This document shows positions 170-54,819 of a stretch of 64,000 nucleotides of DNA, piece by piece. This DNA comes from a bacterium (GTDB lineage Bacteria; UBP18; UBA7526). Within the stretch, counting starts at the first letter, position 1. The number at the start of each line of letters is the position of its first letter. The stretch is taken from NCBI GenBank assembly GCA_030619985.1, contig JAUXAI010000001.1, forward strand, positions 8,708 to 72,707, written 5' to 3'. The notes below the pieces were generated by a model that made no database searches, was not told where the DNA came from, and saw nothing but the letters and a program-made list of their open reading frames with translations. A program made the position numbers and the translations under genes.

Positions 170-1066
170 ATGCGCATACTAATTACTGGTGCCTCTGGAA
201 TGCTGGGCACAGATCTGGTAGAAACCTTATCAAAAGAGCATGAGGTAGTGGGATTAGATATTAAAACTCCACCGTTCACAGTTCACCGTTCACAGTTCAC
301 CGTTTGCGATATTACGAATGAAAAAGAGGTAATGAAAGCGGTCTGTGATGTAAAGCCAGAGGTAGTGATTCACGCTGCAGCCTATACTGATGTCGATGGC
401 TGTGAAAAGAATGAGGATTTAGCCTACAGAGTAAATGGGACTGGTACCCGGAATGTAACCTTAGCCTGTCAAAAGTGCAAAGCAGTTATGGCCTATATCA
501 GCACCGACTTTGTCTTTGATGGAGAAAAGAAAGAGCTCTATCTCGAAAGTGATAAGCCCAATCCTTTGAGCATCTATGGAAAAAGTAAATTAGAGGGAGA
601 GAGATATATTTCTTCCCTTTTAGATAAATACTTCATCATTCGCACTTCTTGGCTATTCGGTAGACATGGAAGAAACTTCGTTAATACTATATTAAAACTC
701 GCTCAGGAAAAGAAGGAACTAAGAATAGTAAATGACCAAATCGGCTCACCCACCTATACCAAAGATCTCGCCCAATCGATCAAAAAACTGATCACCGATC
801 ACTGTTCACAGAGCACCGACTTCGGTATCTACCATATTTCCAATAGTGGTTCCTGCTCTTGGTATGAATTTGCTCAAGAGATATTAAGGGTTAAGGGTTA
901 TGGGTTAAGGGTTAAAGGTATTAGTTCCGAGGAATTGGAACGGCCGGCGAGAAGGCCAAAGTTTTCTGTCTTAGATAACAGTCGCTATATCAAAACTGTG
1001 GGTAAACCATTAAGGCCGTGGCAAAAAGCCCTGAAAGAATATATTGGAAAAATTGAGGCAACATAA
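170..1066 (+). CDS. rfbD: dTDP-4-dehydrorhamnose reductase
   Basis: 298 aa with N-terminal MRILITGASGMLG Rossmann motif and RmlD-like body. It contains two in-frame tandem-repeat insertions. Confidence 0.85.
   Translation: MRILITGASGMLGTDLVETLSKEHEVVGLDIKTPPFTVHRSQFTVCDITNEKEVMKAVCDVKPEVVIHAAAYTDVDGCEKNEDLAYRVNGTGTRNVTLACQKCKAVMAYISTDFVFDGEKKELYLESDKPNPLSIYGKSKLEGERYISSLLDKYFIIRTSWLFGRHGRNFVNTILKLAQEKKELRIVNDQIGSPTYTKDLAQSIKKLITDHCSQSTDFGIYHISNSGSCSWYEFAQEILRVKGYGLRVKGISSEELERPARRPKFSVLDNSRYIKTVGKPLRPWQKALKEYIGKIEAT
272..304. repeat. Heptamer tandem array (CGTTCAC/AGTTCAC x4) inside rfbD, in frame
   Basis: ccgttcacagttca ccgttcacagttca ccgtt; it encodes FTVHRSQFTVHRSQFTV. Confidence 0.8.
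887..919. repeat. Heptamer tandem array (GGGTTAA-like x4) inside rfbD, in frame
   Basis: agggttaagggttatgggttaagggttaaaggt; it encodes RVKGYGLRVKG. Confidence 0.8.
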
Positions 1067-1091
1067 AATTAGTCCTATTGTAGGAGGTAAG

Positions 1092-1433
1092 ATGAAAAAT
1101 CTTAAATTCCTCAGTCCCAAAGAAGAAAAAGCAGTAAAGGAATTTTGCAAAAGCCTGAGGACGAAATACAAAAAGAGAGTGAAGTTTATCAGGATATTTG
1201 GCTCAAAAGTTCACGGCAAAAGTGACAAATTCTCGGACATTGATATATTCATCTTACTGGATAAAAAGGATAAGAGAATAAGGGATTATATTTCTCGGGC
1301 TGCCTGGGAGAGAAGCCTAAAGTATGATGTCGTTCTCTCTCCCATAGTCTATGAAGAGCGCCTATTTCGCAGGCCAGTCATCCAGATTACCCCTTTTATC
1401 AAGAATGTTTTAAAAGAAGGAGCTATGATATGA
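1092..1433 (+). CDS. Nucleotidyltransferase-domain protein (MNT-type antitoxin of a HEPN/MNT pair)
   Basis: GS-x9-DxD motif (FGSKVHGKSDKFSDIDIFILLD). A GGAGGT RBS sits 5 nt upstream of the ATG at 1092. The six-frame ORF extends upstream to 1044. Confidence 0.7.
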   Translation: MKNLKFLSPKEEKAVKEFCKSLRTKYKKRVKFIRIFGSKVHGKSDKFSDIDIFILLDKKDKRIRDYISRAAWERSLKYDVVLSPIVYEERLFRRPVIQITPFIKNVLKEGAMI

Positions 1434-1899
1434 AAAGGGAACTGGTGGATTTAGCAAAGCATAGATTAAAGAGAAGTAAGGAGGCTAAGAGAGACGCCCT
1501 CCTTCTCTTTAAGAAAGGGTCTTACGCCAGTGCCATAAATAAGAACCTGCTGAAGCAGAATCTTGTTTATTCCTTATTTAGATGAGGCAAGTAGAACGCG
1601 TCGTCATAAATAGAGCATATTACGCGATATTCTATGCTACACGCGCCTTACTAGCAACAAAGGAGCTGGATTCTTCTAAGCATTCTGGAGTAATCGCCCT
1701 TTTCAATCGTCATTTTGTTAAGAAAGGATTAGTTCCCAAAGAGTTAAGCAGAATACTCCACACTGCTTTTGAAAAGAGAATAGCCGGGGATTACAAGGAC
1801 TTTCCTGAATTTTCTAAAGAGGAGACTAAAGAAATCCTTTCCAAATGTAAGATATTTTTGAATGGAATTGAAAAGGTTTTAAAGAAATTCCTATCTTGA
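1430..1899 (+). pseudogene. HEPN-domain protein, frameshifted (N-terminal part 1430-1585, C-terminal part 1582-1899)
   Basis: ATGA start/stop overlap with the MNT gene. The N-terminal frame gives MKRELVDLAKHRLKRSKEAKRDALLLFKKGSYASAI... The C-terminal frame gives ...RAYYAIFYATRALL...HSGVIALFNRHFV.... Together they form a full HEPN fold only across a frame change near 1546-1608. Confidence 0.6.
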
Positions 1900-1923
1900 T
1901 AGAATACTCTTGAGGACAAACTG

Positions 1924-2859
1924 GTGAAAGTACTAATAACTGGAGGAGCAGGTTTCTTGGGTTCGCATCTCGTGGACCTTCTCTTAAAAGAGGGCAACGA
2001 GGTCATCTGCCTGGATAATCTAATAACTGGAAGTATGGATAACCTTGCCCATTTACAAGACAATAAAAAGTTTAGGTTCATTAAACAGGATGTAACGGAG
2101 TATATCAAAATAGATGGGCCGATTGACTATGTCTTACATTTCGCCTCACCAGCCAGTCCCATCGATTATCAGAAATATCCCATCCAGACCCTCAAAGTTG
2201 GTGCCTTAGGAGCCCATAAGACTTTGGGTTTGGCAAAAACAAAAACAGCCAAATTCCTTCTGGCCTCGACTTCAGAGGTATACGGGGATCCATTGGTTAA
2301 TCCCCAGAGAGAAAATTACTGGGGGAATGTTAATGCTATAGGGCCGAGGGGAATGTATGATGAGGCAAAACGTTTTGCTGAAGCTATGACTATGGCTTAT
2401 CATAGGTATCACGGAATAGATACCAGAATCGCTCGCATATTCAATACCTTTGGAGAGAGGATGCGGAAGAAAGACGGTCGCGTAGTTCCCACCTTCATTA
2501 CTCAGGCCCTAGCCAATGAGCCCTTAACCGTCTTTGGAGATGGTTCCCAAACAAGAAGTTTTTGTTATGTCTCGGATATGATTGAAGGACTATATAAGTT
2601 AATGCTATCCGTTATTCATGAGCCCATTAATTTAGGCAATCCTCAAGAGATGACCATCTTGGACTTTGCTAAAAAAATAATTGAATTGACTAAGAGTAAG
2701 AGCAAAATAGTCTATAAACCATTGCCCCAGGATGATCCCAAGGTGAGAAGGCCCGATATCTCTAAAGCCAGGAAACTCTTAAAGTGGGAACCAAAAATAA
2801 GTCTGGAAGAGGGACTAAAAAAAACCATTGCTTGGTTCAAAAAGAGCAAAGAAGCATAG
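1924..2859 (+). CDS. uxs: UDP-glucuronate decarboxylase (UDP-xylose synthase)
   Basis: GTG start; [14 protein letters not shown] plus YxxxK SDR-extended features; 311 aa, UXS-like throughout. Confidence 0.8.
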
Positions 2860-2864
2860 CAGAA

Positions 2865-2976
2865 TACAAGTTGACAAGGATACAAGAATACGAAAATAAC
2901 TAAACTTGTTAACTTGTCAACTTATTAACTTGTTAACTTATCAACTAATCAGCTAATCAACTTGTCAACTAATAAG
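2865..2976. repeat. Inverted oligomer-repeat hairpin (ACAAGTTAACAAGG family), empty form
   Basis: Forward acaagttgacaaggatacaag (2865-2891), then reverse complement cttgttaacttgtcaact... arrays (2905-2976). Confidence 0.8.
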
Positions 2977-2992
2977 TATGGGGGTGGAAAGA

Positions 2993-3151
2993 ATGATTGA
3001 CAAGGAATTGTTAGAGATTTTAGCTTGTCCAGTATGCAAAGCAAGTGTAAGATTAGAGCAGAATAAAATTGTCTGTATCAAATGTGGCAGAAGGTATCCC
3101 ATTCGGGACGGTATTCCCGTGATGCTGGAAAGCGAAGCAGAAAAAGAGTGA
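2993..3151 (+). CDS. Trm112-like small protein (UPF0434)
   Basis: 52 aa MIDKELLEILACPVCKASVRLEQNKIVCIKCGRRYPIRDGIPVMLESEAEKE, with the Cys4 zinc-ribbon pattern of the Trm112 family. Confidence 0.6.
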   Translation: MIDKELLEILACPVCKASVRLEQNKIVCIKCGRRYPIRDGIPVMLESEAEKE

Positions 3152-3155
3152 CTGA

Positions 3156-4412
3156 ATGAAGTTTGTCGGCACCTTCGAGAGACAAGTCTCTTTCATATTC
3201 ATTGCTCTCACATTGGGCAATATAGGTAACTTTATATTTCACATTTTTATGGGGCGTCATCTACCAGAAACGGAATATGGAATCCTCTATAGATTGCTTG
3301 CCCTTTTAATGATCGTCTCTGTTCCCGCAACTACTATCCAGACAGTAATTACCAAGTATACTGCCCACTTCAAAGCCTTTAGCCAATATGGTAAGATCCG
3401 TTTTTTATTATTTAATCTTCTCAAGAGGCTCTTCTTCTACGGTTTCCTGGGCTCCCTTATATTTCTGACGGCAAGCGGTAGAATCGCTTCTTGGCAGCAT
3501 TTTCCCTCTAGCAGGCCAGTTATGATCCTGGGAATACTTTTGTTGTTGAGTGTTATCGCCCCAGCAGCAGGAGGAATAATCCAGGGCCTGCAAAAATTTA
3601 ATTACTTAGGATGGAGCACCATATTAGGCACCGCTTCCCGTTTAATATTTGGAATTATCTTTGTCTTCCTCGGTCTGGGAGTAAGTGGGGCTTTAGCTGC
3701 TTCTATTCTCGCCATGCTTGTCGGTATATGCATCCTCTTCTTTCCCCTGAAGTTTCTGTTTAAATCAAAGGAAACAGAGGAGAGGGTAGACTTTAAAGAG
3801 ATCTACAGATATTCTGCTCCGGTTATATTCAGCGTCCTCTTCTTCATGATTCTGACCAACATCGATGCTCTATTAGTGGGAAACTTCTTTAGCCCGGTTA
3901 AAGCAGAAATTTATTCTGCTGCTGCCTTTGTGGGAAGGATGATATTATTTCTTCCCATGCCCATTGTGATTGTCATGTTTCCTAAAGCCTCAGAACTATA
4001 TGCCCAGAGAAGGGACTCTTCCCTTATCTTGAAAAAAAGTCTACTTTACGTTGGCCTCTTAGCGGGTGGAACAACCCTTGTTTGCCTTTTCTTTCCCTCT
4101 CTCATAATTAAGCTTATCTGGGCCGGTAAACATCAAGCAAGTACCCCATTAATTGGAAAGTTCGCCTTAGCCATGGCCCTATTTGGTCTAGTCAATATCC
4201 TTTTCTTCTATCAGCTCTCCATTCATAGGTTTAGATTTTTATATTTAGCAGGCGCTTTCACCCTTTTACAGATAATCGCTATCACTCTATTCCACAATAC
4301 CCTCTCCCAGGTAGTCTGGATCTTGGTGGCCAATGGAGCGTTACTCTTTTTAATTAATCAATTTTTAGTTTGGACACCGAAAAAGATTTCTGAAAAAGTC
4401 AGAAATCTTTGA
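3156..4412 (+). CDS. wzx: Polysaccharide/O-unit flippase (Wzx-like, MOP superfamily)
   Basis: 418 aa, about 12 predicted TM helices, typical polysaccharide-biosynthesis-protein architecture. Confidence 0.65.
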   Translation: MKFVGTFERQVSFIFIALTLGNIGNFIFHIFMGRHLPETEYGILYRLLALLMIVSVPATTIQTVITKYTAHFKAFSQYGKIRFLLFNLLKRLFFYGFLGSLIFLTASGRIASWQHFPSSRPVMILGILLLLSVIAPAAGGIIQGLQKFNYLGWSTILGTASRLIFGIIFVFLGLGVSGALAASILAMLVGICILFFPLKFLFKSKETEERVDFKEIYRYSAPVIFSVLFFMILTNIDALLVGNFFSPVKAEIYSAAAFVGRMILFLPMPIVIVMFPKASELYAQRRDSSLILKKSLLYVGLLAGGTTLVCLFFPSLIIKLIWAGKHQASTPLIGKFALAMALFGLVNILFFYQLSIHRFRFLYLAGAFTLLQIIAITLFHNTLSQVVWILVANGALLFLINQFLVWTPKKISEKVRNL

Positions 4413-4494
4413 TTACAGTGATTAAAAAATAAGATTACACAGATTAGTTATTAACGACGAAATCTGTGTAATCATTCTCAAAATCTGTGTAGTC
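4411..4494. repeat. Inverted 13-mer array hairpin (GATTACACAGATT x2 / AATCTGTGTAATC x2)
   Basis: gattacagtgatt, gattacacagatt ... aatctgtgtaatc, aatctgtgtagtc. The same 13-mer family recurs in frame inside the GT2 gene at 10048-10081. Confidence 0.8.
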
Positions 4495-6254: not shown

Positions 6255-6257
6255 TGA

Positions 6258-6315: not shown

Positions 6316-7839
6316 ATGATTTCTTATCCTCCCTTGAAAGGACCAGGATGTCCTTTATTGAGTCAGAACCGTCAGTTTCAATGGTTCCATAATCCTACTT
6401 ATATCTATCCCGTAGTTCCGGCCTGGGCAGCGACGATGCTTAAGAACGCGGGTTATGAGGTCATCTGGAACGACTGTATTGCAGAAAATTGGGACTATAA
6501 AAAGTTTTTGGATTTTGTCCAAAAGGAAAAGCCCGACCTCATTGCCTTTGAAACCAAAACCCCAGTAATAAAGCAGCACTGGCAAATCATCAACGATTTG
6601 AAAAGACCAATCACCAATCACCGATCACCGATCACCGTATTATTCGGTGATCACGTTACTGCTCTACCTGAGGAATCTTTCCACAATTCTCAGGTCGATT
6701 ATGTTCTGACCGGTGGTGACTATGATTTCCTCCTCCTCAACCTCTGTAACTTTTTAGCTACCGATAACCCGATTACCCGATCACCTGATCACCTGATAAC
6801 CCGATTAGAACCCGGCATCTGGTATCGAGAAAGTGGCGAAATTAAGAATTCCGGTCTTTTCCGATTAAATCATGATTTAGATTCTTTACCTTTCATTGAT
6901 CGTGATTTAACTAAATGGAAACTCTATGCTTATGAAAATGGAAATTATAAATTAACCCCCGGGACCTATATTATGGCGGGAAGAGATTGTTGGTGGCGAA
7001 AGGATGGTGGCTGTACCTTTTGCTCCTGGACCGCCCTTTATCCTACCTGGAGGGTGAGGTCGGTAGAGAATGTCTTGGATGAGATGGGCGAGCTTATTGA
7101 GAGATATAAGATTCGGGAGATAATGGATGATACCGGTACTTTTCCGGCTGGGGAGTGGCTGCGAGAGTTCTGTCAGGGGATGATTAAAAGAGGTTATAAT
7201 GAAAGGATTAATTTCGATTGCAATCTGCGTTTTGGAGCATTAACCAGTAAAGATTATAAACTGATGGCCAAGGCGGGATTCAGATTCCTCCTTTATGGGC
7301 TTGAATCGGCGAGCCAAGAAACAATTAATAGATTGAATAAGGAGATAAAGATTGCCGCCATTGAGGAGGAATTAAGAGAGGTCAAAAGGGCAAATAGAGA
7401 GATTAAAGGACATCTCGAACCCCATGTCACCTGTATGGTTGGCTATCCCTGGGAGACAAAAGAGGAGGCAGAGAAGACGATTCAGATGACAAAGGATTTG
7501 TTCAGTAAAGGCTTGATAGACACCCTTCAGGCAACCATTATGATTCCCTACCCAGGAACGGCCCTCTTTAAGGAATGCAGGAAGAATGGATGGTTAAAGA
7601 ACGAGGATTGGGATGGGTTTGATATGAGTCAGCCGGTCATGAAGACTCCTCTGAAGGATGAGGAAGTAATGCGACTCACTCAGGGCATTTATAAATCCTT
7701 TATTACCCCACGCTTCTTATTTAGGAAAATAATATCTATCAGGAATATTGATGGCTTAAAGTTTTTCTGGCGTGCTGGAAAGGCAGTTTTGGGCCATCTC
7801 CGGGACTTTATGAAAAAACAATCTAAATTTTTGACATAG
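6316..7839 (+). CDS. B12-binding-domain radical SAM protein
   Basis: N-terminal Rossmann-like B12-binding region, then a Cys cluster (CWWRKDGGCTFCSW) and a TIM-barrel region. The six-frame ORF start at 6286 lies inside the hairpin, so ATG 6316 is more likely. The CDS carries two in-frame repeat insertions. Confidence 0.65.
   Translation: MISYPPLKGPGCPLLSQNRQFQWFHNPTYIYPVVPAWAATMLKNAGYEVIWNDCIAENWDYKKFLDFVQKEKPDLIAFETKTPVIKQHWQIINDLKRPITNHRSPITVLFGDHVTALPEESFHNSQVDYVLTGGDYDFLLLNLCNFLATDNPITRSPDHLITRLEPGIWYRESGEIKNSGLFRLNHDLDSLPFIDRDLTKWKLYAYENGNYKLTPGTYIMAGRDCWWRKDGGCTFCSWTALYPTWRVRSVENVLDEMGELIERYKIREIMDDTGTFPAGEWLREFCQGMIKRGYNERINFDCNLRFGALTSKDYKLMAKAGFRFLLYGLESASQETINRLNKEIKIAAIEEELREVKRANREIKGHLEPHVTCMVGYPWETKEEAEKTIQMTKDLFSKGLIDTLQATIMIPYPGTALFKECRKNGWLKNEDWDGFDMSQPVMKTPLKDEEVMRLTQGIYKSFITPRFLFRKIISIRNIDGLKFFWRAGKAVLGHLRDFMKKQSKFLT
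6608..6637. repeat. Heptamer array CAATCAC/CGATCAC x4 in frame inside the radical SAM CDS
   Basis: caatcaccaatcaccgatcaccgatcaccg encodes ITNHRSPITV. The same CGATCAC heptamer forms the array at 50912-50939. Confidence 0.8.
6761..6808. repeat. Octamer array CCGATNAC x6 in frame inside the radical SAM CDS
   Basis: ccgataac ccgattac ccgatcac ctgatcac ctgataac ccgattag. Confidence 0.8.
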
Positions 7840-7900: not shown

Positions 7901-7994
7901 TAAAAGGACGGGAAATATACTCCATACCTAGACGCAGATATAATATCATCAGAAAATGTTATATCTGAATGCGTAGAAAAATGTGGAGAGTAAG
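7901..7994 (+). pseudogene. Duplicated internal fragment of the downstream GT2 gene (9590-10558)
   Basis: It translates to KDGKYTPYLDADIISSENVISECVEKCGE*. The intact gene has RGKYILYLDADMILSKDVISECVEKC; the two are about 75% identical at nucleotide level over roughly 80 nt. Confidence 0.7.
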
Positions 7995-9362
7995 ATGGAT
8001 ATAAAAGCACTAATTAAAGAAGGCGAGTCTGAAGCCTTAGAATTTAAAGAATCTACAGGAGAGTGGAAAGAGATAGTTTCAACTATCTCTGCTTTTGCTA
8101 ATACTAAAGGTGGTAGGATAATTATTGGAGTTTCTAAATCGGGTAAACTATTTGGTGCAGAAATTGGCAAAGATACTATTGAGCGTCTAAGCAATCAAAT
8201 CTCTCAGAATACCGACCCCAAAGTTCATCCCCGCATTACTACAGAGAAGATAAAAGGCAAATCCATAATCATTATTGAAGTAAAAGAGTCATCCGACCAT
8301 TTGATTCTTGCATTTGGTAGGCCATTCAAAAGGGTAGGCAAATCAACTGTCAAAATGTCCAAGGATGAGTATGAAAAGTTGATTTTAGAAAAGCATAGAG
8401 AGAAATTATATTTTGATTCTCAAATTTGTAAAGGTGCGAAGCTAAAAGATATCAATAAGGAAAGATTATTATGGTTTGTTAAGGAAGCAAGGGTTCATAG
8501 GGGTTTGGATGTAGAAGATATGCTTCCCACAGAAGAAATTTTAGAAAGATTAAAACTTTTAAAGGAAAGGAAGTTAACCAATGCCGCTATATTGTTATTT
8601 GGAAAAAATCCTCAGAAGTTTTTTCTTCAGACGATAATAAAAGCAATCAGATTCAAGGGGACTGATGTAACGGAAGATATGCTAGACTTTAAGACCATAG
8701 AAGGAGATATCCTGATTCAGCTTAAGAGGGCTGAAGACTTTATCTTTGAACACATTCCGAAACAGGCATGGATAGAAGAAGGTAAACTTCAAAGACAGGA
8801 AAAATGGTTATACCCGCCTAAAGCGATAAGGGAGGCTTTGGCAAACGCATTAGCGCATAGAGATTATGAGACAACATCAAGTGTTCAGGTTAGAATTTTT
8901 GATGATAGGTTAGAAATATGGAATCCAGGAGGTTTGCCATCAGGACTTACAGTGGAAAAACTAAAGAGAAAACATACTTCCATCCCTCGCAATCCTCTTA
9001 TTGCGAGAGCCTTCTTTTGGGTGAAATACGTAGAAGAAGTTGGCACAGGAACAAATAAGATTATCAAATGGTGTAAAGAGTGGGAGTTACCTGAGCCAGA
9101 ATTTGAAGATACAGGAACAAGTTTTGTATTAACTTTCCGAAAATTCTATGTGAGTGAAAGTTTATTAGAAGTATTGAATGAACGTCAGAAAAAGGCTGTA
9201 GGGTATCTTAGGGAAAAAGGCAAAATAACAAATAGAGAGTATCAAAAACTTTGCGCTGGTGTAAATAGAGAAACCATAAGAAAAGACCTAAATAATTTAA
9301 TTAATAAAAAAATTATTATTAGAAAAGGAGAAAAAAAAGGGGTTTATTACGAACTTATATGA
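7995..9362 (+). CDS. COG2865-type putative regulator/defence-associated protein (AlbA_2 Schlafen-like domain + HATPase_c_4 + C-terminal wHTH)
   Basis: N-terminal ...EFKES...region of the divergent AAA/AlbA_2 type; the central region resembles the RecG-C-terminal-like ATPase fold; the C-terminus is a winged helix. The six-frame ORF starts with GTG at 7983; ATG 7995 is preferred. Confidence 0.6.
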   Translation: MDIKALIKEGESEALEFKESTGEWKEIVSTISAFANTKGGRIIIGVSKSGKLFGAEIGKDTIERLSNQISQNTDPKVHPRITTEKIKGKSIIIIEVKESSDHLILAFGRPFKRVGKSTVKMSKDEYEKLILEKHREKLYFDSQICKGAKLKDINKERLLWFVKEARVHRGLDVEDMLPTEEILERLKLLKERKLTNAAILLFGKNPQKFFLQTIIKAIRFKGTDVTEDMLDFKTIEGDILIQLKRAEDFIFEHIPKQAWIEEGKLQRQEKWLYPPKAIREALANALAHRDYETTSSVQVRIFDDRLEIWNPGGLPSGLTVEKLKRKHTSIPRNPLIARAFFWVKYVEEVGTGTNKIIKWCKEWELPEPEFEDTGTSFVLTFRKFYVSESLLEVLNERQKKAVGYLREKGKITNREYQKLCAGVNRETIRKDLNNLINKKIIIRKGEKKGVYYELI

Positions 9363-9396
9363 TATGCCAACTTTATGCCAACTTTATGCCAACTTT
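9363..9396. repeat. 11-mer tandem array (TTATGCCAACT x3)
   Basis: atgccaactttatgccaactttatgccaacttta, immediately after the COG2865 stop. Confidence 0.8.
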
Positions 9397-9589
9397 AAAG
9401 ATAGTTGTAAAGGAGGGAAGGGTAAGGGAAAATGGTAAACAGAGCATTAAACGGGTGCGAGTTCTCCGCTATCGTGGGGAAGCCGCCAGATAATAATTAT
9501 GCGTCAGATTTGCGCCAGATAGCAGAAATAAAGAATACACGAATTTCACTTTGCGAAAAAGTGAAAATCTGACGCTGAGTGATAAAGGG

Positions 9590-10558
9590 ATGGAAGAATA
9601 TCCAGTGGTTTCTGTAGTAGTTACAACTAAGAATGAAGCAAAGAGCATCGAAAATTGCTTGAGGAGCATAAAAAAACAGACCTATCCACAAAAAAAGATA
9701 GAGATAATCATAGTGGATAATAATTCAACCGATAAAACGAAGGAAATTGCTAAAAGATTTGCAGATAAAGTCTACAATAAAGGTCCAGAAAGATCAGCCC
9801 AAAGGAATTTTGGAGTAGAGAGGGCAAGAGGGAAATACATCTTATACCTTGATGCAGATATGATATTATCAAAAGATGTAATTTCTGAATGTGTAGAGAA
9901 ATGCCTGCCCCGTAGGAAGCCAACCTGCCCCGTAGCTTCCGCCTCGGCGGGATGGTATGGGGAGGCTTTCCTTCGGGGTGAAAACGAAGACTGCGTTGCC
10001 CTATATATTCCCGAACGAATAGTAAATTTATCTTCCGATCAGTTAAATAATCGGTGTAATCTAAATTTTAATCTGCGTAATCAGCGTTTCTGGATAAAGG
10101 TAAGAGATTTTGAGAGAAATTTCTATAATGCCACAGTAATAGATTGTGTGAGATTTATTCAGAGAGATAAATTTTTAAAAATTGGTGGATTTGATGAAAA
10201 ATTAACTGGTCCTGAAGATTGGGATTTTGATCGAAGAATCAAGGAGAAGGGAAAAGTGGACATAATAAACGCTCCTCTGTATCACAACGAAGGAGAATTT
10301 AATCTCAAAGAATATCTAAAGAAAAAAAGTTATTACTCTCGATTTTTCAATAAGTACATTCAGAAATGGGGTAAGGATGATTCTATTATAAGAAAGCAAT
10401 TAGGCCCTTGGTATCGTTTATTTGGAGTTTTTATTGAGAATAGAAAGTGGAAAAGATTCATCAGTAAACCTCATTTAGCTTTTGGCATAATTATATTGAG
10501 ATGTTCAGTTGGGCTAGTATTCTTAGTTTCTAAGATTTCAAAAATTACTCGGCGTTAG
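9590..10558 (+). CDS. GT2 family glycosyltransferase carrying two in-frame repeat insertions
   Basis: VVSVVVTTKNE...IIVDNNSTDKT...LDAD motifs. In-frame inserts are a 12-mer x2 (cctgccccgtag, 9903-9935) and a 13-mer x2 (aatcggtgtaatc / aatctgcgtaatc, 10048-10081). The six-frame ORF starts at 9551. Confidence 0.65.
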   Translation: MEEYPVVSVVVTTKNEAKSIENCLRSIKKQTYPQKKIEIIIVDNNSTDKTKEIAKRFADKVYNKGPERSAQRNFGVERARGKYILYLDADMILSKDVISECVEKCLPRRKPTCPVASASAGWYGEAFLRGENEDCVALYIPERIVNLSSDQLNNRCNLNFNLRNQRFWIKVRDFERNFYNATVIDCVRFIQRDKFLKIGGFDEKLTGPEDWDFDRRIKEKGKVDIINAPLYHNEGEFNLKEYLKKKSYYSRFFNKYIQKWGKDDSIIRKQLGPWYRLFGVFIENRKWKRFISKPHLAFGIIILRCSVGLVFLVSKISKITRR

Positions 10559-47592: not shown

Positions 47593-48561
47593 ATGAGAAG
47601 CAAGAAGCCCTTTAAAAAAGTAACTTTAAGGACGATTGCTGCCTTAGTTGCAATGATAATGGGCTTATTCATCTGGTTAATTCTGCCCAGTAAGGGGATC
47701 GAAATAACCCAGCTCGTTCCTCAGGAGACATTTACCTTTCTCTCCTTAAAGATAGACTCGAAGGATTCTGGGACTTCTGAGTTGCTCAATAATTTCAACT
47801 GGAGGATTAGGTGGGGGGTACGCCTTCTGGGCCCGGTGGAAATTGCGGCCCTTGCTGCCCCGACGGTTAACAAAGAAGAACCAGACTATCTCTTTCTGGT
47901 CAAGAATGGCCGGCTCATTAGAGTTGTCCGACTCTTCAGAAGATCAATAGATAAAGCAATGATTGATGAGGAGTCGTTTGAGAGAATCGATTATAGGGGC
48001 TGCCGCATCCTTCACCTGAAGGGTTTAGGGAAAGAGGATGAAGTCTCTTCCTACACCCTCTTTAGAGATATTGCCCTTGCTTCAAATAATCTTTCTTTGC
48101 TCAAGGCCTCCTTAGACCAATATGGAGGAGAGGCTACCTTCATATCTGGGGAGGCCTTGGACGACTTCGGGAAATGGAGAGAATTAGGGGATGGCATGCT
48201 CTTTATCAGTAACATTCATTTTGATCTCTCATATCTTATAAAAAGTCTGGAAGAAAAAAGCGTCTACGCTATATTTCCATCTGTGAATTCGGTGCAATGG
48301 CTGGGGGGCTACTTTGATATTCTCGATGCTGATAATTCAAGGGGGGCTTTAACCTTTAAATATAAAGAGGAAGCAGATATGAAAAAGGGTGAGGGAGATG
48401 TCCGTTTTTTAGCTGGAATCCTGCGACGATTATGTAAAGCTCATGATATAAATTTCACTTACGGAATAATGACAGACAATAATTATATAAATTTGAATTT
48501 TAAGATTTCTGGATTGAGATTACTAACCACCAATCTTTTAATAAAGGAGGAGAAAAAGTAG
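47593..48561 (+). CDS. Hypothetical N-terminally anchored protein, paralog of 48562-49785
   Basis: Shared C-terminal motifs: ...DILDADNSRGALTFKYKE...YINLNFKISGLRLL versus ...DIVDPDTARGKMVFESGNE...YVTLNFEVMGLKPL. Confidence 0.45.
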   Translation: MRSKKPFKKVTLRTIAALVAMIMGLFIWLILPSKGIEITQLVPQETFTFLSLKIDSKDSGTSELLNNFNWRIRWGVRLLGPVEIAALAAPTVNKEEPDYLFLVKNGRLIRVVRLFRRSIDKAMIDEESFERIDYRGCRILHLKGLGKEDEVSSYTLFRDIALASNNLSLLKASLDQYGGEATFISGEALDDFGKWRELGDGMLFISNIHFDLSYLIKSLEEKSVYAIFPSVNSVQWLGGYFDILDADNSRGALTFKYKEEADMKKGEGDVRFLAGILRRLCKAHDINFTYGIMTDNNYINLNFKISGLRLLTTNLLIKEEKK

Positions 48562-49785: not shown

Positions 49786-50892
49786 GTGAAAATGCCAATA
49801 TTAGCTAAATTCAAACACCAGCGAACTGAAATCCTAATTTTCTCATTTTTTGGTATTCTGAGTCTAATGGCTACCCATCCTATGATCTTTAAAATGAAGA
49901 GTCATATCTACGGATATCCTGGTGATCCCTTAGGAAGTATATGGAGAATTTGGTGGTATAAATTTTCCTGGGTACATCATATTTCTTCTCGGTTTATTAT
50001 CATAATAGCCCATCCCTTTGGAGTTGATTTGAGTCAGGAAATAAGCAGTGCTCCTTTTAATTATTTAGTTTTCTTAATGGCTTTACTTAGTAATGAAATC
50101 TTTACTTATAATTTTATTCTTCTATGTGGGTTTCTACTATCAGCAATTACTATGTACTTCTTGGTTTACCACTTGACCAGAAATAGGGGAGCAAGTACTA
50201 TGGCTGGAGTGCTCTATGCCTTCTGTCCTTGGCACTTTGCTCATGCCGGGCAACATCTTTCCTTGGCTTCTATTCAATGGCTACCCCTTTACGGACTATT
50301 TCTCTTTAAACTGTTTAATAAAAGAACCTATAGAAATGCCTTTCTCTGTGCTCTGGGATTTTCCTTAGTCATTTTTACTGATTTTTCCTATGTCTTTCTA
50401 ATTTCGATTTTTACTACTGCCTTCATTGTATGGGGGTTATGGTTTACCTTGGGTCCCAACCGTAGATTCTACCCTACAAGTTCTAAGGCCTCACTTTTAA
50501 AGACAAGTATAGTAATTCTGGTAACTTTTCTCATTGCTTTGGCTATGATACTTCCTTTTACCTATTCTACTTTTAAGACCGCTCTTACGCTGCCTAAAGT
50601 AGAGTCCATGGCTATCTTAAGATACGCCAAGCCTTTTCGAGATCTTACTTCTAATTCTGCCCGGCCTTTGGGTTATCTTTTACCCTCTCAAGATAACCCA
50701 TTTTTTGGCAGGGTCACTAAAAAATTCATTAAAAGTCCCTTCTATGGTAGCCATCCTACGGAACATACCCTTTATCTGGGATGGGTGGGGATTGTGCTTT
50801 CGATTGTCGCGATAAGGGAATGGAGGAGAAAAAATAGGAAGCAGAGGATAGAGAAAAGAGGTCATCAGGTCATCAGGTCATCAGGTCATTAA
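49786..50892 (+). CDS. Polytopic membrane protein, N-terminal part of a gene apparently split by a tandem-repeat tract
   Basis: 368 aa, about 9 TM helices. It ends ...GHQVIRSSGH* inside the octamer array. Confidence 0.5.
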   Translation: MKMPILAKFKHQRTEILIFSFFGILSLMATHPMIFKMKSHIYGYPGDPLGSIWRIWWYKFSWVHHISSRFIIIIAHPFGVDLSQEISSAPFNYLVFLMALLSNEIFTYNFILLCGFLLSAITMYFLVYHLTRNRGASTMAGVLYAFCPWHFAHAGQHLSLASIQWLPLYGLFLFKLFNKRTYRNAFLCALGFSLVIFTDFSYVFLISIFTTAFIVWGLWFTLGPNRRFYPTSSKASLLKTSIVILVTFLIALAMILPFTYSTFKTALTLPKVESMAILRYAKPFRDLTSNSARPLGYLLPSQDNPFFGRVTKKFIKSPFYGSHPTEHTLYLGWVGIVLSIVAIREWRRKNRKQRIEKRGHQVIRSSGH

Positions 50893-50939
50893 GAGGAATA
50901 GACAGACAGACCGATCACCGATCACCGATCACCGATCAC
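50858..50939. repeat. Octamer array (AGGTCATC x4, 50858-50889) followed by heptamer array (CGATCAC x4, 50912-50939)
   Basis: Units that are not multiples of 3, lying at the junction of two overlapping reading frames. Confidence 0.85.
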
Positions 50940-50974: not shown

Positions 50975-51658
50975 GTGGCTTTGCTATTTTCTCATTCCCC
51001 CTATACAGAAATTGGTCCTTTTCGAATACTCTTCCCTTCTTACTTTATGTATAGAATTGCTCCTATGTTTCGCTGTTATGCCCGATTTGGTATTGTTGTT
51101 ATGCTTTGTGTGAGTGCCTTAGCAGGGATTGGTCTTGCTTCAATTTTAGAGAAGATAAGGAGTAGTAAAAGAAGAAGAATTTTTCTTTCTGTAATTTTTT
51201 TACTTATTTTTATTGAATTTGCTCCTGCTCTGCCAGCCCCCATGGTTAATGCAGTTGATCCTCCTCCAGTCTATGAATGGCTCGCTAAACAAGAAGGCGA
51301 TTTTACTATTGCTGAGTATCCCTTAGAAGATGATCAGGAGTACTTCTTTTGGCAGAGGATCCACCAGAAGAGATTAGTCAATGGTGCTCAACCAGGAACC
51401 TACGCTGATGAGGTAAGGAAAGAGATCATTGATATCTTGAAGCCAGAAACTCCGGGTATTCTAAAATATTTAGGAACGAGGTATATCATTTTTCATCCTG
51501 ATAAGTATCTGAAGAGTGAGGATGTCCCAGTAATTGGCGAGGTTCCAGATGTAAGCAAGCAAAGGGGGCTAAAACTCATTAAGACTTTTGAAGATGCGGG
51601 AGTCTATGAGGTGGTAGTGGAGCCGATTAAGCCCAAGACGCGAATTAACGCGAACTGA
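50975..51658 (+). CDS. C-terminal part of the split membrane protein (its frame is open from 50852)
   Basis: The frame is open upstream through both repeat arrays to 50852, overlapping the first ORF by 41 nt. It continues with TM helices and then a soluble domain. Confidence 0.45.
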   Translation: MALLFSHSPYTEIGPFRILFPSYFMYRIAPMFRCYARFGIVVMLCVSALAGIGLASILEKIRSSKRRRIFLSVIFLLIFIEFAPALPAPMVNAVDPPPVYEWLAKQEGDFTIAEYPLEDDQEYFFWQRIHQKRLVNGAQPGTYADEVRKEIIDILKPETPGILKYLGTRYIIFHPDKYLKSEDVPVIGEVPDVSKQRGLKLIKTFEDAGVYEVVVEPIKPKTRINAN

Positions 51659-51860
51659 AAAGCGAGGACGCAAGATAATCGGCACGCGAATTATCGCGAA
51701 TTAAAAGCAGTTACCAAGCTATCAAGTGATTGAGCTATCGAATTGGATGGTTGGATGGTTAGCCTGTTAACCAGTTTGCTGGTTAGCCAGTTTGCCAGTT
51801 GAATTTGGGGGAGAGCAGAGAAAAGAGCTACCAAGCTATCGAGCTATCAAGTAAGGAGTA
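51644..51860. repeat. 45-nt direct-repeat copy 1 (51644-51690) plus a complex inverted oligomer-repeat region
   Basis: cgcgaactgaaaagcgaggacgcaagataatcggcacgcgaatt recurs at 52862-52905. It is followed by accaagctatcaag/gagctatcga and ccagtttg arrays. Confidence 0.75.
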
Positions 51861-51938: not shown

Positions 51939-52772
51939 ATGAGAAGGACATTAGGTTTTGTTTTAATCTTGGGTGTTTTAGTGGTAAGTGGATGCGTGAG
52001 AAGGGAACTTCTTGTTCTCCCTGAGGCACCAGAGGTAGGGGTGTTAAAGCCGGTTACCAGGCCAGGGACAGCGGCCTTCAGGGGAGGGGAAAAACTAACC
52101 TTCTTAGCTAAGTTCCGGTTTATTCCTGCTGGAGAGGTGACTATGGAAGTAAGGGAGATGAGATATAGGGGCCATGAGGTCTACAGTCCTTTAATAACTA
52201 TGAAGGCGGCTAAGTTATTTTCTTTTTTCTGTCCAGCAGAGGTAAATATCAGGTCCTATCTCGATGCCCGTACCTTAGATAGTCTACGTTATGAGGAGCA
52301 TACCATAATGGGTCGCCATACCTATGAACGCTTGACGGTCTATGACCAGAGGAATCGATTGGCGACGTATGATGCGCCAGTCTATGATAGAATGGGCAAG
52401 ACAATCAGGATTTATAAGAAGAAGGTAAGGATTCCACCCCATACCCAGGATATGTTATCTGCCTTCTATTATATTCGAACCCAGGAATTAAAAGAGGGAA
52501 AGATTCTAACCATCAATGCCAATGAGCGACACAAGAATTATAGAGTGAAGATAAAGGTCTTGAGGAAAGAGAAGGTTACTGTTCCAGCAGGAACCTTCCT
52601 CACCTGGGTGATAGAGCCGATTTCCATACAGAGATTGGATAAAGAAAAAGAAGGGGAAAAAGGAACAGGTCTTATCTATCTCAGCGCAGATGAGAGGAAG
52701 CTACCAGTCTTAATGAAAGCCAAGACAAAATTAGGCTCGGTTACTGTTCAACTAATAGACGTTAAACTTTAA
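51939..52772 (+). CDS. DUF3108-like lipoprotein
   Basis: Signal peptide with lipobox (VVSGC); beta-rich body consistent with DUF3108 family members. Confidence 0.45.
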   Translation: MRRTLGFVLILGVLVVSGCVRRELLVLPEAPEVGVLKPVTRPGTAAFRGGEKLTFLAKFRFIPAGEVTMEVREMRYRGHEVYSPLITMKAAKLFSFFCPAEVNIRSYLDARTLDSLRYEEHTIMGRHTYERLTVYDQRNRLATYDAPVYDRMGKTIRIYKKKVRIPPHTQDMLSAFYYIRTQELKEGKILTINANERHKNYRVKIKVLRKEKVTVPAGTFLTWVIEPISIQRLDKEKEGEKGTGLIYLSADERKLPVLMKAKTKLGSVTVQLIDVKL

Positions 52773-52774
52773 CG

Positions 52775-52915
52775 CGAATAATCGCGAACTGCAAAGCAAA
52801 GAACGAAACAAAGTAAACAGGACGCGAATTAACGCGAATAAAAGAGGGACGCGAATAGACGCGAACTGAAAAGCGAGGACGCAAGATAATCGGGACGCGA
52901 ATCAACGCGAATGAA
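52775..52915. repeat. ACGCGAA-type oligomer arrays including 45-nt direct-repeat copy 2
   Basis: ttaacgcgaataatcgcgaactg...gacgcgaattaacgcgaat...cgcgaactgaaaagcgaggacgcaagataatcgggacgcgaatc. Confidence 0.8.
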
Positions 52916-53306
52916 AACAGAAACAAAAATATTATATAAGGAGTTAGCTTACCAAATAGTAGGAGCTTTTTACGAAGTATATAATACTCTGGGGCCAGGT
53001 TTTAAAGAGTCCATTTACCATAACGCTTTAGCCATTGAATTTACTTTACGGAAAATATCCTTTGAAACTAATAAGAGACTCACCATCAAGTATAAAAAGC
53101 AAAAGGTTGGAATTTATGAACCAGACTTCGTTATAGATAATAAGATTCTTGTTGAAATCAAAGCTGTTCCCAGGATGCCCAGAGTTTACGAAAAGCAGTT
53201 ATATTACTATCTGAAGGGTACAGAATATAAATTGGGTTACTTAGTAAATTTTGGAGCTGATAAATTAGAAATCAAGCGTAGAATCTACGAAAGGATTCGC
53301 GTTTGA
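52911..53306 (+). CDS. GxxExxY family protein
   Basis: AYQIVGAFYEVYNTLGPGFKESIYHNAL..., the family-defining G-x2-E-x2-Y N-terminus; 131 aa. Confidence 0.75.
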   Translation: MKTETKILYKELAYQIVGAFYEVYNTLGPGFKESIYHNALAIEFTLRKISFETNKRLTIKYKKQKVGIYEPDFVIDNKILVEIKAVPRMPRVYEKQLYYYLKGTEYKLGYLVNFGADKLEIKRRIYERIRV

Positions 53307-53318
53307 AGGAGGTTTGAG

Positions 53319-53747
53319 ATGGCTTTTGTATTACTCTTTGCTTCTATATTTTTGGCAGTGGTGGGACAGTTATTGCTGAAGAAGGGGATGTGGACGGTGG
53401 GGATTGTCTATTTCCATTTCTCCCATCTCTGGTCTACCTTCCTTAAAGTCTTTTCTAACTGGTATGTTATCTTTGGATTCGTCTTTTTTGTTTTAAGTGC
53501 CCTTCTGTGGTTGGCGGTCTTATCAAGATTGGATATTAGCAAGGCCTATCCCATGGTGGCCGCGGGCTATATTCTGGTTCTTTTAGCTTCCAGGTGGGGA
53601 ATAATTGTGACTAGAGAACCAGTCTCTCCCATCAGATGGATAGGGGCCCTGGTGATTTGTTTCGGTGTTTACCTTATTTCGCGCACTGATTTCGCGCAGT
53701 TGATTAAGGACTTATCAACTTTAATCTTCTGGAGGAAGCATGGTTAA
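53319..53747 (+). CDS. Small EamA/SMR-like membrane protein (ArnE/ArnF-like undecaprenyl-phosphate-sugar flippase subunit family)
   Basis: 142 aa, 4 TM helices, GQLLLKKG motif near the N-terminus. Confidence 0.5.
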   Translation: MAFVLLFASIFLAVVGQLLLKKGMWTVGIVYFHFSHLWSTFLKVFSNWYVIFGFVFFVLSALLWLAVLSRLDISKAYPMVAAGYILVLLASRWGIIVTREPVSPIRWIGALVICFGVYLISRTDFAQLIKDLSTLIFWRKHG

Positions 53748-54819
53748 GGCGGTCATTATTGCTGGGGGGAGGGGAGAGAGGTTTTGGCCTAAGAGTAGGA
53801 TTAGAACACCGAAGCAACTCCTTCCCATAGCCTCTAAAAAGAGTATGATCTATGAGACGGTGAAGAGGATAAGCCCTTTGGTGACATCAAAGGATATTCT
53901 GATTATTGCCAGAAGAGGTTTGGGGGCAAGAATCAAGAAAGATCTTCCTAAGATCCCCACTAAGAATATTATCTCCGAGCCCTTTGGGCGGGATACTGCA
54001 GCAGCAGTCGGCTTAGGAGCAATATTAGCGGAGAAGAAAGACCCAGATAGCGTTATGGTTGTCTTACCCGCAGATCATGTAATTGGTGAGCCGAAGAAGT
54101 TTCTAAAAACTTTAAGAGTGGCCATCAAGGCTGCCCGAGATACAGATAATTTAGTGACTATGGGAATCAAACCTAACAGGCCAGAGACGGGGTATGGGTA
54201 TATAGAAATTGGTTCGCCAGTTCGCCAGTTCGCCAGTTCGCCAGTTTATGAGGTGAAGAGGTTTGCAGAAAAGCCGGATAGGAAAAAAGCATTAAAGTTT
54301 ATGAAGAGCGGGAGGTATCTCTGGAATAGTGGAATGTTTATCTGGAGAACCTCTGTTATCCTGAAAGCGATGAGAAAACATATGCCCCAACTATATAGAG
54401 GCCTTTTGGAGATTCAGGAGGCCTTGGGTACTTCTCAAGAAAAGAAAGCGATTGAAAAGGTCTACAAAAAGTTGGACAAAATATCCATAGATTATGGTAT
54501 AATGGAGAAGGCAAAAAATACATTGGTGGTGAAGGCAGATTATCTCTGGGATGATGTGGGGAACTGGCAGGCCCTGGAAAGAATCTCAGTTAAAGATAAA
54601 GAGAGGAATATTACCAAGGGAGAAGTCTCTTCTTTAGATACGAGAGATTCCATTATTCTCTGTGACAAAGGAATGGTAGGAACAATCGGTATAAAAGATT
54701 TAATCATCATCTCAACAGAAGATGCTACTTTAATCTGCCCTAAAGATAGGGCCCAGGAAGTAAAGGAACTGGTCCACAAGCTTGGTAAGAATAAGAAATT
54801 AAAGAAATACATTAAGTAA
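53740..54819 (+). CDS. manC: Mannose-1-phosphate guanylyltransferase (nucleotidyltransferase domain only)
   Basis: AVIIAGGRGERFWPKSR...PKQLLPI...GYGYIE; 359 aa. It carries an in-frame octamer repeat insertion. Confidence 0.75.
   Translation: MVKAVIIAGGRGERFWPKSRIRTPKQLLPIASKKSMIYETVKRISPLVTSKDILIIARRGLGARIKKDLPKIPTKNIISEPFGRDTAAAVGLGAILAEKKDPDSVMVVLPADHVIGEPKKFLKTLRVAIKAARDTDNLVTMGIKPNRPETGYGYIEIGSPVRQFASSPVYEVKRFAEKPDRKKALKFMKSGRYLWNSGMFIWRTSVILKAMRKHMPQLYRGLLEIQEALGTSQEKKAIEKVYKKLDKISIDYGIMEKAKNTLVVKADYLWDDVGNWQALERISVKDKERNITKGEVSSLDTRDSIILCDKGMVGTIGIKDLIIISTEDATLICPKDRAQEVKELVHKLGKNKKLKKYIK
54213..54246. repeat. Octamer array CGCCAGTT x4 in frame inside manC
   Basis: It encodes SPVRQFASSPV. 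A related CCAGTTTG array lies intergenically at 51766-51800. Confidence 0.8.

Follow-up and report, generated by a model that had tools for sequence, protein, structure and literature searches.

Gene content of the locus and detection of arrays

A 64 kb stretch of contig JAUXAI010000001.1 (GenBank assembly GCA_030619985.1), from an uncultured sediment bacterium affiliated with GTDB UBP18; UBA7526, was analysed for short tandem repeat arrays that occupied both its intergenic spacers and the interior of its enzyme genes. This stretch is referred to as the window. All called genes across the 64 kb and all features listed in Table 1 were located on the + strand. Gene identities were backed by Pfam and solved structures for RmlD (rfbD), a B12-binding radical SAM enzyme, a GT2 glycosyltransferase and mannose-1-phosphate guanylyltransferase (manC). 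The LepA protein (61788-63563) had relatives at 80-99% identity that were labelled "bacterium", "subsurface metagenome" or "marine sediment metagenome". Outside that clade, LepA identity was at most 68%, which identifies the host as a deep-branching, non-cyanobacterial lineage. The first named taxa, at 63-64%, belonged to Nitrospirota, Bacillota, Atribacteria and other phyla.

Arrays were called over the whole window with Tandem Repeats Finder (TRF); a strong array was defined by a period of 7-8 nt and a TRF score of at least 40. The tandem arrays listed in a preceding sequence-only reading of this DNA were all recovered with an offset of 0-3 nt, and the repeats were indeed found in intact open reading frames (ORFs) and translated. 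Two details of that reading were corrected. The translated peptide of rfbD site 1, PPFTVHRSQFTV, was shorter than the one quoted, and the 12-mers and 13-mers of the GT2 gene, although each present twice, were not tandem, as 8 nt separated the members of each pair. Three intragenic arrays were absent from its list, namely rfbD site 2, the array of the GT-C glycosyltransferase gene and the one ending ORF 49786-50892, and so were many of the intergenic ones.

The analysis covered about 130 kb of clade DNA, including the syntenic fragments L081, L083, L084, L085, L087, L088 and L089. L081 and L085 both originated from GCA_030615855.1, whose LepA was 95% identical to that of the window, and L083 from a JGI metagenome. 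L084 represented a strain with 97% DNA identity over window positions 59875-64000. L086 and L087 were short metagenome contigs of low coverage (1.7x for L086). Protein alignments comprised 23 RmlD and 21 ManC homologs, and the clade alleles amounted to 17 for rfbD and 15 for manC.

Table 1. Repeat arrays, hairpins and array-bounded cassettes in the window, in order of position
Location	Positions	Strand	Repeat units	Translation	Fold z-score	Remarks
rfbD site 1	270-304	+	CACCGTT/CACAGTT x5 (GGTTYAC family)	PPFTVHRSQFTV		TRF
rfbD site 2	790-819	+	degenerate ACCGATC x4.3	ITDHCSQSTD		TRF
rfbD site 3	884-919	+	TTAAGGG x5.1	LRVKGYGLRVKG		TRF
intergenic	2861-2973	+	inverted octamers: GACAAGTT-type (2861-2891), AACTTGTC x8.5 (2903-2973)		-3.2	begins 2 nt past stop codon
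intergenic	4411-4494	+	four 13-mers, GATTACACAGATT / AATCTGTGTAATC		-7.3	nested hairpin, -33.2 kcal/mol
radical SAM site 1	6606-6652	+	ACCAATC/ACCGATC x4.6 (TRF 6606-6637), then one complementary unit	PITNHRSPITV	-2.8	intragenic hairpin
radical SAM site 2	6761-6805	+	octamer CCGATAAC x5.6	TDNPITRSPDHLITR		TRF
intergenic	9363-9397	+	11-mer TATGCCAACTT x3.2			1 nt past stop of Schlafen/AlbA_2 gene
GT2 insertion 1	9905-9990	+	two CTGCCCCGTAG 12-mers		-1.8	GC-rich palindromic segment, in frame, ~24 extra residues
GT2 insertion 2	10049-10082	+	two direct AATCKGYGTAATC 13-mers, 21-nt period			within ~22-aa insertion
GT-C glycosyltransferase gene	39837-39867	+	heptamer AAACTCA x4.4			weak
ORF 49786-50892, C-terminus	50859-50889	+	AGGTCATC x3.9			supplies end and stop codon of ORF
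ORF end and intergenic	50859-50939	+	AGGTCATC x3.9, then ACCGATC x4.3 (50910-50939)		-2.4	imperfect pairing
intergenic	51743-51848	+	octamer cluster TTGGATGG, GTTAGCCA/CCAGTTTG, GAGCTATC; GTTAGCCA/CCAGTTTG-like x5.4 at 51758-51800 (TRF)		-2.0	
manC	54212-54246	+	octamer GTTCGCCA x4.4	SPVRQFASSPV		TRF; 100% perfect; beta-hairpin loop
intergenic	54820-54872	+	GGTTNAC x4, then inverted ACGGTAA x2.6		-2.4	from 1 nt past manC stop
intergenic	56345-56472	+	inverted octamers (AAGTTAAC... / AACTTGTC x4.6)		-3.1	from PGM stop codon
cassette 1	59630-60093	+	octamer array, inverted octamer array			encloses four-helix-bundle gene 59683-60057 (23S rRNA IVS protein, PF05635/TIGR02436)
cassette 2	61324-61776	+	9-mer AGGGGTGAC x4.9, inverted 9-mer array			encloses second four-helix-bundle gene 61328-61732
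downstream of lepA	63553-63719	+	inverted 17/18-mers AGGTGGATTAGGAAATT x2.6, AATCCAACTATTCCACCA x2.1		-3.5	

Excess and distribution of the arrays

The window held 13 strong arrays, compared with none in 30 dinucleotide-preserving shuffles of its sequence. The background, 507 kb around manC genes in 80 genomes of other phyla (manC relatives of at most 50% identity), contained three such arrays, corresponding to 0.06 per 10 kb. Every syntenic fragment fetched from the relatives was rich in arrays of the same kind, with densities of 3.7-6.9 per 10 kb. A typical array arm consisted of 4-5 units of 7, 8 or 9 nt, with a median tract length of 32 nt. Non-coding DNA made up only 6.8% of the window, yet it harboured 15 of the 24 arrays, and for nine of these the distance from the preceding stop codon to the array start was no more than 10 nt. 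The nine arrays inside ORFs included three in rfbD, two in the radical SAM gene and one in manC.

Several distinct unit families were dispersed over many loci, mainly in spacers. GGTTYAC, ACCGATC, AAGTCCA, TTAAGGG, AATGCAA and AACTTGTC recurred at unrelated positions, and the same families were present in intergenic hairpins and inside genes, as the sequence-only reading had observed. Four copies of the 13-mer AATCTGYGTAATC made up two nested inverted pairs at 4411-4494, and the GT2 gene contained two more (10049-10082). With up to two mismatches this 13-mer had nine matches against 3.0 expected, a number reached by none of 100 shuffles. From its sequence, GT2 insertion 2 looks like one arm of the hairpin type at 4411-4494. 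Single-linkage clustering of units at no more than one mismatch chained unrelated heptamers by chance and was not used as evidence for super-families.

The central 39 kb of the window differed from the flanks. It contained only the array in the GT-C gene, equal to 0.26 per 10 kb versus 7.6 and 10.5 per 10 kb on the two sides. This segment (10500-49700) is a glycan-biosynthesis island with many GT2 and GT4 genes, five B12-binding radical SAM genes, methyltransferases and an asparagine synthase; its GC content was lower, 34-39% at 14-28 kb. The island looks like a recently acquired, strain-specific block. Its near-absence of arrays would fit accumulation in resident DNA by a lineage-specific process and not a targeting of glycan genes. 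A housekeeping gene of the Mur-ligase/FolC-like type in a relative contained arrays too (L081 318-349 and 938-975), so the feature extends beyond glycan genes.

One unrelated uncultured metagenome-assembled genome of the background set (L004; manC 48% identical) showed two heptamer arrays, GGATACT and GATCCTG, directly after manC, at 4099-4175, and may represent another array-rich lineage.

Replacement of unit families at fixed sites of conserved enzymes

Homologs of RmlD and ManC outside the clade, at no more than 61% identity, had ordinary non-repetitive residues at the array sites, and clade members carried repeat-encoded peptides, often of other units than the window. The segments are lineage-specific and not conserved native sequence, in line with the sequence-only reading. 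At all three rfbD sites, the heptamer families differed between the window, L081 and L083. Site 1 was built from GGTTCAC/GGTTTAC in L083, from GGATCTN in L081 and from AAGTCCA in further relatives. One allele, P0010, was array-free at this site and shorter by exactly seven residues, the length of three heptamers. At site 2, the degenerate array of the window corresponded to a perfect ACCGATC array in L083 and to CATCACA in L081. At site 3, L087 was 99.8% identical to window positions 388-2000 except for the 36-nt array, where TTAAGGG x5 was replaced by TCACGAG x5 in register. Further upstream, L087 carried a patch of ~130 nt, including rfbD site 1, that was 99% identical to the L081 allele. 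As read from this short metagenome contig, the pattern points to short-patch recombination between alleles. Some unit variants were one mutation apart, namely CACCGTT, CACGGTT and TACGGTT at site 1 and TTAAGGG, TTACGAG and TCACGAG at site 3.

Relative to solved RmlD structures, site 1 was longer by 5-11 residues and site 2 by ~5, and the length at site 3 was unchanged. In the AlphaFold model of RmlD (pLDDT 89), site 1 corresponded to loop 31-40 and strand 41-45, site 2 to a helix end and loop with a pLDDT dip to 71, and site 3 to a helix end, a loop and strand 247-251. The rfbD sites were thus not limited to surface loops, and the model suggests that arrays can overwrite secondary structure as well. 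The earlier description of the repeats as inserted was correct for some sites only, such as the GT2 segments (~24 and ~22 aa), which are true insertions. The arrays at rfbD site 3 and in manC overwrote native residues, including part of a helix and a strand. Compared with Thermotoga GMP, the manC segment had four extra residues, although in nearer outgroups the corresponding loop is longer still.

The manC loop contained five unit families over 15 alleles. In L085, whose flanks were ~87% identical, the octamer array of the window was represented by the heptamer GGTTYAC x5 with an equal total length, and further alleles also carried GGTTYAC x5. The period thus switched from 8 to 7 at one site without intermediates. 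L089 carried AATCGAA-type AATGCAA x8, which added seven residues, P0248 and P0251 carried AAGTCCA, and a TTAAGGG-like unit was present in other alleles. L088, with a ~90% identical protein, had the same octamer in the same copy number as the window, with two point substitutions. The peptides GLRFTVY, GSRFTVH, KSKVQSP, LRVKGxG, NAKCKMQ, TDHRSPI, SRVTSHE and HHTSHIT were exact three-frame translations of units. GLRFTVY, KSKVQSP, LRVKGxG, NAKCKMQ and TDHRSPI were found in both rfbD and manC alleles, showing that a small palette of units was reused at unrelated loci.

The radical SAM gene gave a similar picture. The array of site 1 was also present in the L083 ortholog. In the window, its single complementary unit lay within conserved GDH codons, and array and unit together formed the intragenic hairpin. 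At site 2, the octamer array was represented in the L083 ortholog by the heptamer GCGACCC x4.7. GT2 insertion 1 was seen against seven homologs, and it folded weakly better than its shuffles.

Small GC-rich palindromes nested in heptamer arrays were also translated. They were observed in L086 (400-440), in the proteins P0008, P0009, P0014, P0016 and P0017 and at window 9905-9990; ALAPRSGAG, RSRASAEDG and RGETSLQARRGETS are examples of the resulting peptides. Small dispersed repeats of a comparable kind, lying within cyanobacterial heptamer arrays, were reportedly described by Elhai et al. in 2008.

Intergenic hairpins

The intergenic arrays were mostly inverted pairs, located at 2861-2891/2903-2973, 54820-54872, 56345-56472 and 63553-63719, together with the 13-mer structure at 4411-4494. 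The intergenic structures folded better than shuffled sequence, with z-scores of -2.0 to -7.3. At orthologous spacers, the hairpin shape was retained while the unit family changed. The spacer between PGM and the following GT2 gene held octamers in the window and a GGTTTAC-family heptamer hairpin in L085 (z-score -8.9). The structure downstream of lepA was identical in L084, and an unrelated hairpin was located in its place in L085. Copy number varied as well: the site at 2861-2973 comprised ~4 units in L081 against 8.5 in the window, and the hairpin after manC was kept in L085, L088 and L089 with 2.5-4.5 units. The 30-mer GTTTACGGTTAACGGTTTACGGTGTACGGT occurred without any difference in two unlinked spacers of L085, where the unit variants also followed one another in the same succession.

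Canonical intrinsic terminators were not enriched, and the array hairpins were not called as such. A scan of the window against Rfam gave no match and no rRNA, and the tRNA scan of the window gave no tRNA. A conserved ~75-nt element, GAAGGGCGGGCAAATTGAATAATAATTATTCACCAGCGGGGCAAGTGAAACGCACCGCTCAAC, was nested in GTAAAC arrays at three loci of relatives (L085 9905-9985, L088 7113-7190 and L089 320-400); it was absent from the window and had no Rfam match.

Array-bounded cassettes

Two cassettes with a gene for a four-helix-bundle protein of the 23S rRNA intervening sequence (IVS) type were bracketed by inverted arrays. Cassette 1 was ~95% identical to a cassette upstream of manC in L088 (5520-5995), which is a different locus, and the homology stopped exactly at the outer ends of both arrays. 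This cassette therefore behaves as a discrete mobile unit. Cassette 2, ~460 nt long, was missing in the 97%-identical L084 (1451-1470), where 8 nt separated the GT4 stop from the lepA start. A third cassette was detected in L085 (8002-8520), with GGTTACTAA-type arrays around a PF05635/TIGR02436 ORF. Another ORF of this family, at L083 6508-6891, had no bracketing inverted repeats. All cassettes were located between protein-coding genes and not in 23S rRNA.

A second type of small gene, GxxExxY / PDDEXK_3, was present at window 52911-53306. It was preceded by four or five copies of the motif ACGCGAATNAACGCGAA with periods of 27 and 73 (region 52772-52925). The motif also occurred at 51640-51703, where ORF 50975-51658 ends within it. 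A 41-nt inverted repeat bracketed a PDDEXK_3 gene of L083.

Stop codon avoidance and probable selection in coding DNA

Of 16 unit families found in genes, 14 were free of stops in all frames when read in the genic orientation, and the reverse complement had stops for nine of these 14. The two remaining families carried substitutions exactly at the would-be stops. In rfbD site 3, one unit read TTATGGG instead of TTAAGGG where TAA would be in frame, and radical SAM site 2 had CGATCA in place of CGATAA, which would end the frame.

The statement that the total insert length is always a multiple of three did not hold for the coordinates given in that reading, by which the segments 10048-10081 and 54213-54246, of six in total, were 34 nt each. 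Only the net length relative to homologs was divisible by three; every intact ORF implies this, so that the property is a selection filter and not a trait of the element.

Other features of the locus

A nucleotidyltransferase/HEPN toxin-antitoxin-like pair was located at 1044-1899 between rfbD and the next epimerase gene. It was absent there in L081 and L083 and present in L087. A gene with Schlafen/AlbA_2, HATPase_c_4 and HTH domains (7983-9362) separated the radical SAM gene from the GT2 gene as an insertion compared with L083, and the 11-mer array at 9363-9397 was directly 3' of it. A pyrimidine-rich repeat with a period of 18-24 nt (TTCTTCTTTCTCCTCACAAC-like) was present at 58835-58944, with the second GT2 gene on one side and the histidine phosphatase gene on the other. 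The repeat was kept in the relative L085 (7085-7195) and was distinct in type from the 7-9-nt arrays.

Origin and maintenance of the arrays

The arrays are probably dispersed palindromic repeat elements with rapid turnover, similar to the short tandemly repeated repetitive (STRR) sequences and filtered by purifying selection where they lie in genes, and not contingency loci. They would be arms of a lineage-wide population of small elements, kin in kind to STRR and other heptamer repeats. An arm would comprise ~30-45 nt, with 4-5 units of 7, 8 or 9 nt drawn from a limited palette of families, and a complete element would consist of arm, loop and inverted arm, some enclosing a gene for a four-helix-bundle (IVS) protein. 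Complete elements would occupy spacers from or next to the upstream stop codon and form hairpins in the polycistronic transcript. Among close relatives, elements would be gained, lost, moved and exchanged, and slippage would alter copy number. Dispersal may proceed by copy-paste through hairpin or single-strand intermediates, or by short-patch recombination. Single arms would also land in or spread over coding DNA. Purifying selection would keep those genic copies that are in the stop-free orientation or acquire stop-removing substitutions, have a net length compatible with frame and fold, and fall in a permissive segment; keeping arms only in permissive segments would lead to reuse of the same few protein sites. 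The encoded peptides would then be tolerated passengers and not adaptive features, and the arrays are probably fast-changing, mobile, selfish DNA.

What the sequences themselves show is the array excess, the hairpins, the confinement to the clade, the exchange of families at fixed sites, the shared palette, the presence or absence of one cassette, the occurrence of another at two loci and the avoidance of stops. Several points weigh against this interpretation. No transposase, REP-associated tyrosine transposase (RAYT), reverse transcriptase or other candidate for a mobilising enzyme was detected among the 50 window ORFs scanned against Pfam or NCBIfam; four ORFs were outside this direct scan (47593-48561, 54933-56345, 56501-57742 and 57727-58731). 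No target-site duplication was recognised at the single empty/filled pair, the window versus L084. A complementary partner was located nearby for only one of eight intragenic arrays (radical SAM site 1, 9 nt), so that describing the intragenic arrays as single arms of hairpin elements goes beyond what was observed. Part of the evidence came from L086 and L087, which are possibly chimeric across shared arrays, and the evidence base was the compared clade DNA and not a whole genome. Intergenic hairpins that act in mRNA processing or stability may also be more than selfish DNA. An origin of the intragenic arrays by fold-back from nearby complementary native sequence was rejected as a general rule, with a partner at radical SAM site 1 and none at the seven others.

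A purely local origin appears rather unlikely. It supposes that a lineage-specific bias in replication or repair leaves slippage of 7-9 nt uncorrected, so that arrays are built in place without movement between loci and their units drift by point mutation and homogenisation within the array. Such a process would suit the exact filling of unconstrained stretches (after stop codons, in loops and linkers), the neighbouring alleles with single-mutation unit variants at rfbD sites 1 and 3, the variable copy number at orthologous spacers and the negative search for a mobilising enzyme among the window ORFs scanned. It does not account for identical units, and an identical 30-mer down to the order of its variants, at unlinked loci; unit sharing between loci far above chance was already indicated on the DNA compared. 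The abrupt period change in manC between 87%-identical flanks, and whole array-bounded cassettes that are present or absent or located elsewhere, also speak against it.

Similarly low is the probability that the hairpins are functional RNA or DNA elements, selected as operon punctuation, with the intragenic copies as by-products. Candidate roles are RNase III processing stems, REP/BIME-like 3'-end stabilisers (repetitive extragenic palindromes and bacterial interspersed mosaic elements) and sites for RNA-binding proteins. This explanation is compatible with dispersed palindromic elements. The hairpin architecture persisted at orthologous spacers despite replacement of the unit family, arrays followed directly after stops in a 64-kb run of genes on one strand, and IVS-type stems flanked small genes as they do in 23S rRNA intervening sequences. 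Against a selected function, only the shape of the hairpins was conserved and not their sequence, one spacer was simply empty in L084, and neither the terminator prediction nor Rfam recognised the structures.

An active, lineage-encoded process that writes the arrays by templated synthesis or hairpin-mediated copy-paste, and not by slippage or ordinary transposition, is unlikely. Tracts of ~35 nt from a few templates of 7-9 nt would be written onto unconstrained DNA, over spacers and permissive protein segments in register. The process is possibly linked to the array-bracketed cassettes with four-helix-bundle (Avd-like) or GxxExxY genes. If so, the clade would reveal how the long-noted surplus of heptamer repeats in prokaryotes comes about.

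We consider it improbable that the arrays are contingency loci, in which 7- and 8-nt tracts in sugar-nucleotide and glycan genes are hypermutable and a change by one unit switches the gene, giving phase-variable surface glycans. The sequence-only reading had proposed latent phase variation of this kind. The unit lengths are not multiples of three and the tracts lie inside ORFs, the manC tract is perfect over 4.4 units, the genes serve the synthesis of surface polysaccharide, which phase variation classically affects, and intergenic copy number varied among relatives (8.5 vs ~4; 2.5-4.5 units). Within genes, however, the expected length polymorphism was not seen. All length differences among the clade alleles of rfbD and manC were in frame. 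The manC copy number was equal in L088, which had gained two substitutions instead, and three arrays were identical in the 97%-identical L084. A metagenome scan of the manC loop returned two contigs only, both with in-frame spacing, and a test on two contigs has little power; the only match from a separate contig, L091, was array-free at the site. The tracts were short, with 4-5 units, and most were imperfect. Arrays were mostly intergenic and extended to housekeeping genes of relatives, and the 39-kb glycan island was almost free of them. One candidate for a frameshifted rfbD allele, P0016/L086, was rejected: at an array of this 1.7x-coverage contig the sequence passes into an unrelated gene, most likely through a chimeric join.

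It is very improbable that a diversity-generating retroelement (DGR) or a similar system, to which the Avd-like four-helix-bundle genes would belong, diversifies target proteins by rewriting short stretches of them. Short hypervariable segments in otherwise near-identical genes and nearby four-helix-bundle genes with weak Avd similarity recall such systems, but no reverse transcriptase was found among the window ORFs scanned, the window had no template/variable repeat pair, the substitutions showed no restriction to adenine (each unit of rfbD site 3 differed between the window and L087 by T>C, A>C and G>A), and the targets were cytoplasmic enzymes, with the same arrays also in non-coding DNA. 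An assembly or sequencing artefact, which the sequence-only reading had named as a concern, is practically out of the question: repeats shared between loci can produce chimeric joins, as in L086, but the arrays were shorter than a read, the ORFs were intact, and independent assemblies from NCBI, JGI, ENA and Logan carried arrays at the same sites.

Significance and comparison with known repeat systems

The clade offers a dense and tractable case with many unit families, close relatives that permit the reconstruction of events and an array-poor foreign island as internal control. It shows that repeats can overwrite parts of conserved cytoplasmic enzymes, giving strain-specific peptide segments at a few hot spots. 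When enzymes from metagenomes are aligned, annotated or placed in phylogenies, such array-encoded segments can be misleading, and assemblies are likely to become chimeric at arrays that several loci have in common.

Cyanobacterial STRR are heptamers that were reportedly described by Mazel et al. in 1990. The arrays of the window resemble them in their tandem 7-nt units, in the presence of several families per genome and in short dispersed arrays that lie mainly between the genes of operons, with some in ORFs. Judged by its LepA relatives, the host is not a cyanobacterium, whereas STRR in the strict sense belong to cyanobacterial hosts. Units of 8 and 9 nt were as common as those of 7 nt in the window, the arms formed inverted pairs, and families replaced each other at the same codons. 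No tandem dimer of CCCCAGT, TTGGTCA, CAACAGT, TAACTGA, GGGAATC or GGGGAYT was detected in the window, in any rotation or on either strand. The likeness to STRR drawn in the sequence-only reading was thus apt, including the non-cyanobacterial setting, but intragenic arrays outside cyanobacteria had already been described (PMC4679880, PMC4692102).

Direct repeats of TAACTGA occur in Beggiatoaceae, cyanobacteria and Bacteroidetes (MacGregor 2015, PMC4679880). They form arrays of 2-6 copies that often overlap stop codons or lie near starts, and horizontal spread is suspected; a minority is located in ORFs, in stop-free orientation and mostly at the protein periphery (PMC4679880). The window shares with the Beggiatoaceae the heptamer arrays outside cyanobacteria, the proximity to stop codons and the stop-free orientation in ORFs. 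One unit dominates there, whereas many are present here, together with inverted pairs and arrays in the interior of conserved enzymes. For the heptamers GGGAATC of Xanthomonas and GGGGAYT of Nostoc, about four units are preferred, which was attributed to G-quadruplex formation of these G-rich units (Rehm et al. 2015, PMC4692102). Their arrays lie within 50 bp of stop codons, some overlapping them, and 7%-32% are intragenic (PMC4692102). The units of the window are not G-tracts, yet show the same preference for 4-5 units, which argues against G-quadruplexes as a general cause. Among intergenic periodic repeats, a survey of 7006 genomes found tandem heptamers to be the commonest and saw "no clear clue" to what they do (Mori et al. 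2018, PMC6344855).

Short dispersed palindromes in operon spacers just after stop codons, polymorphic in presence between strains, are also the hallmark of REP/BIME, REP doublets forming hairpins (REPIN) and miniature inverted-repeat transposable elements (MITEs). The window and its relatives likewise had multi-copy spacer hairpins whose presence or location changed between strains. They differ in the absence of a RAYT or transposase gene among the window genes scanned and in arms that are tandem-periodic and of many families. Colonisation of coding sequence in frame is not a usual feature of REP. The cassettes resemble the 23S rRNA IVS with its S23p ORF, as a small four-helix-bundle gene is bracketed by stem-forming inverted repeats and occurs sporadically among strains. 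An IVS is an insertion in a helix of 23S rRNA that is excised by RNase III, whereas the cassettes lie between protein-coding genes and their inverted repeats are arrays of 8-10-nt units that differ between cassettes. With the contingency loci of Haemophilus, Neisseria and Campylobacter, the arrays share non-triplet repeat units inside glycan genes. Unlike those loci, they are short and often imperfect, showed no frame-switching length polymorphism and are not confined to surface-related genes.

Compared with these systems, four features of the clade appear to be new. The first is the very high density of arrays, and the second the mixture of units of 7, 8 and 9 nt as inverted arms. The third appears to be the exchange of one family for another, at some sites with a different period, within the same codons of conserved enzymes, and the fourth the use of arrays as terminal inverted repeats of four-helix-bundle cassettes that vary in presence and location.

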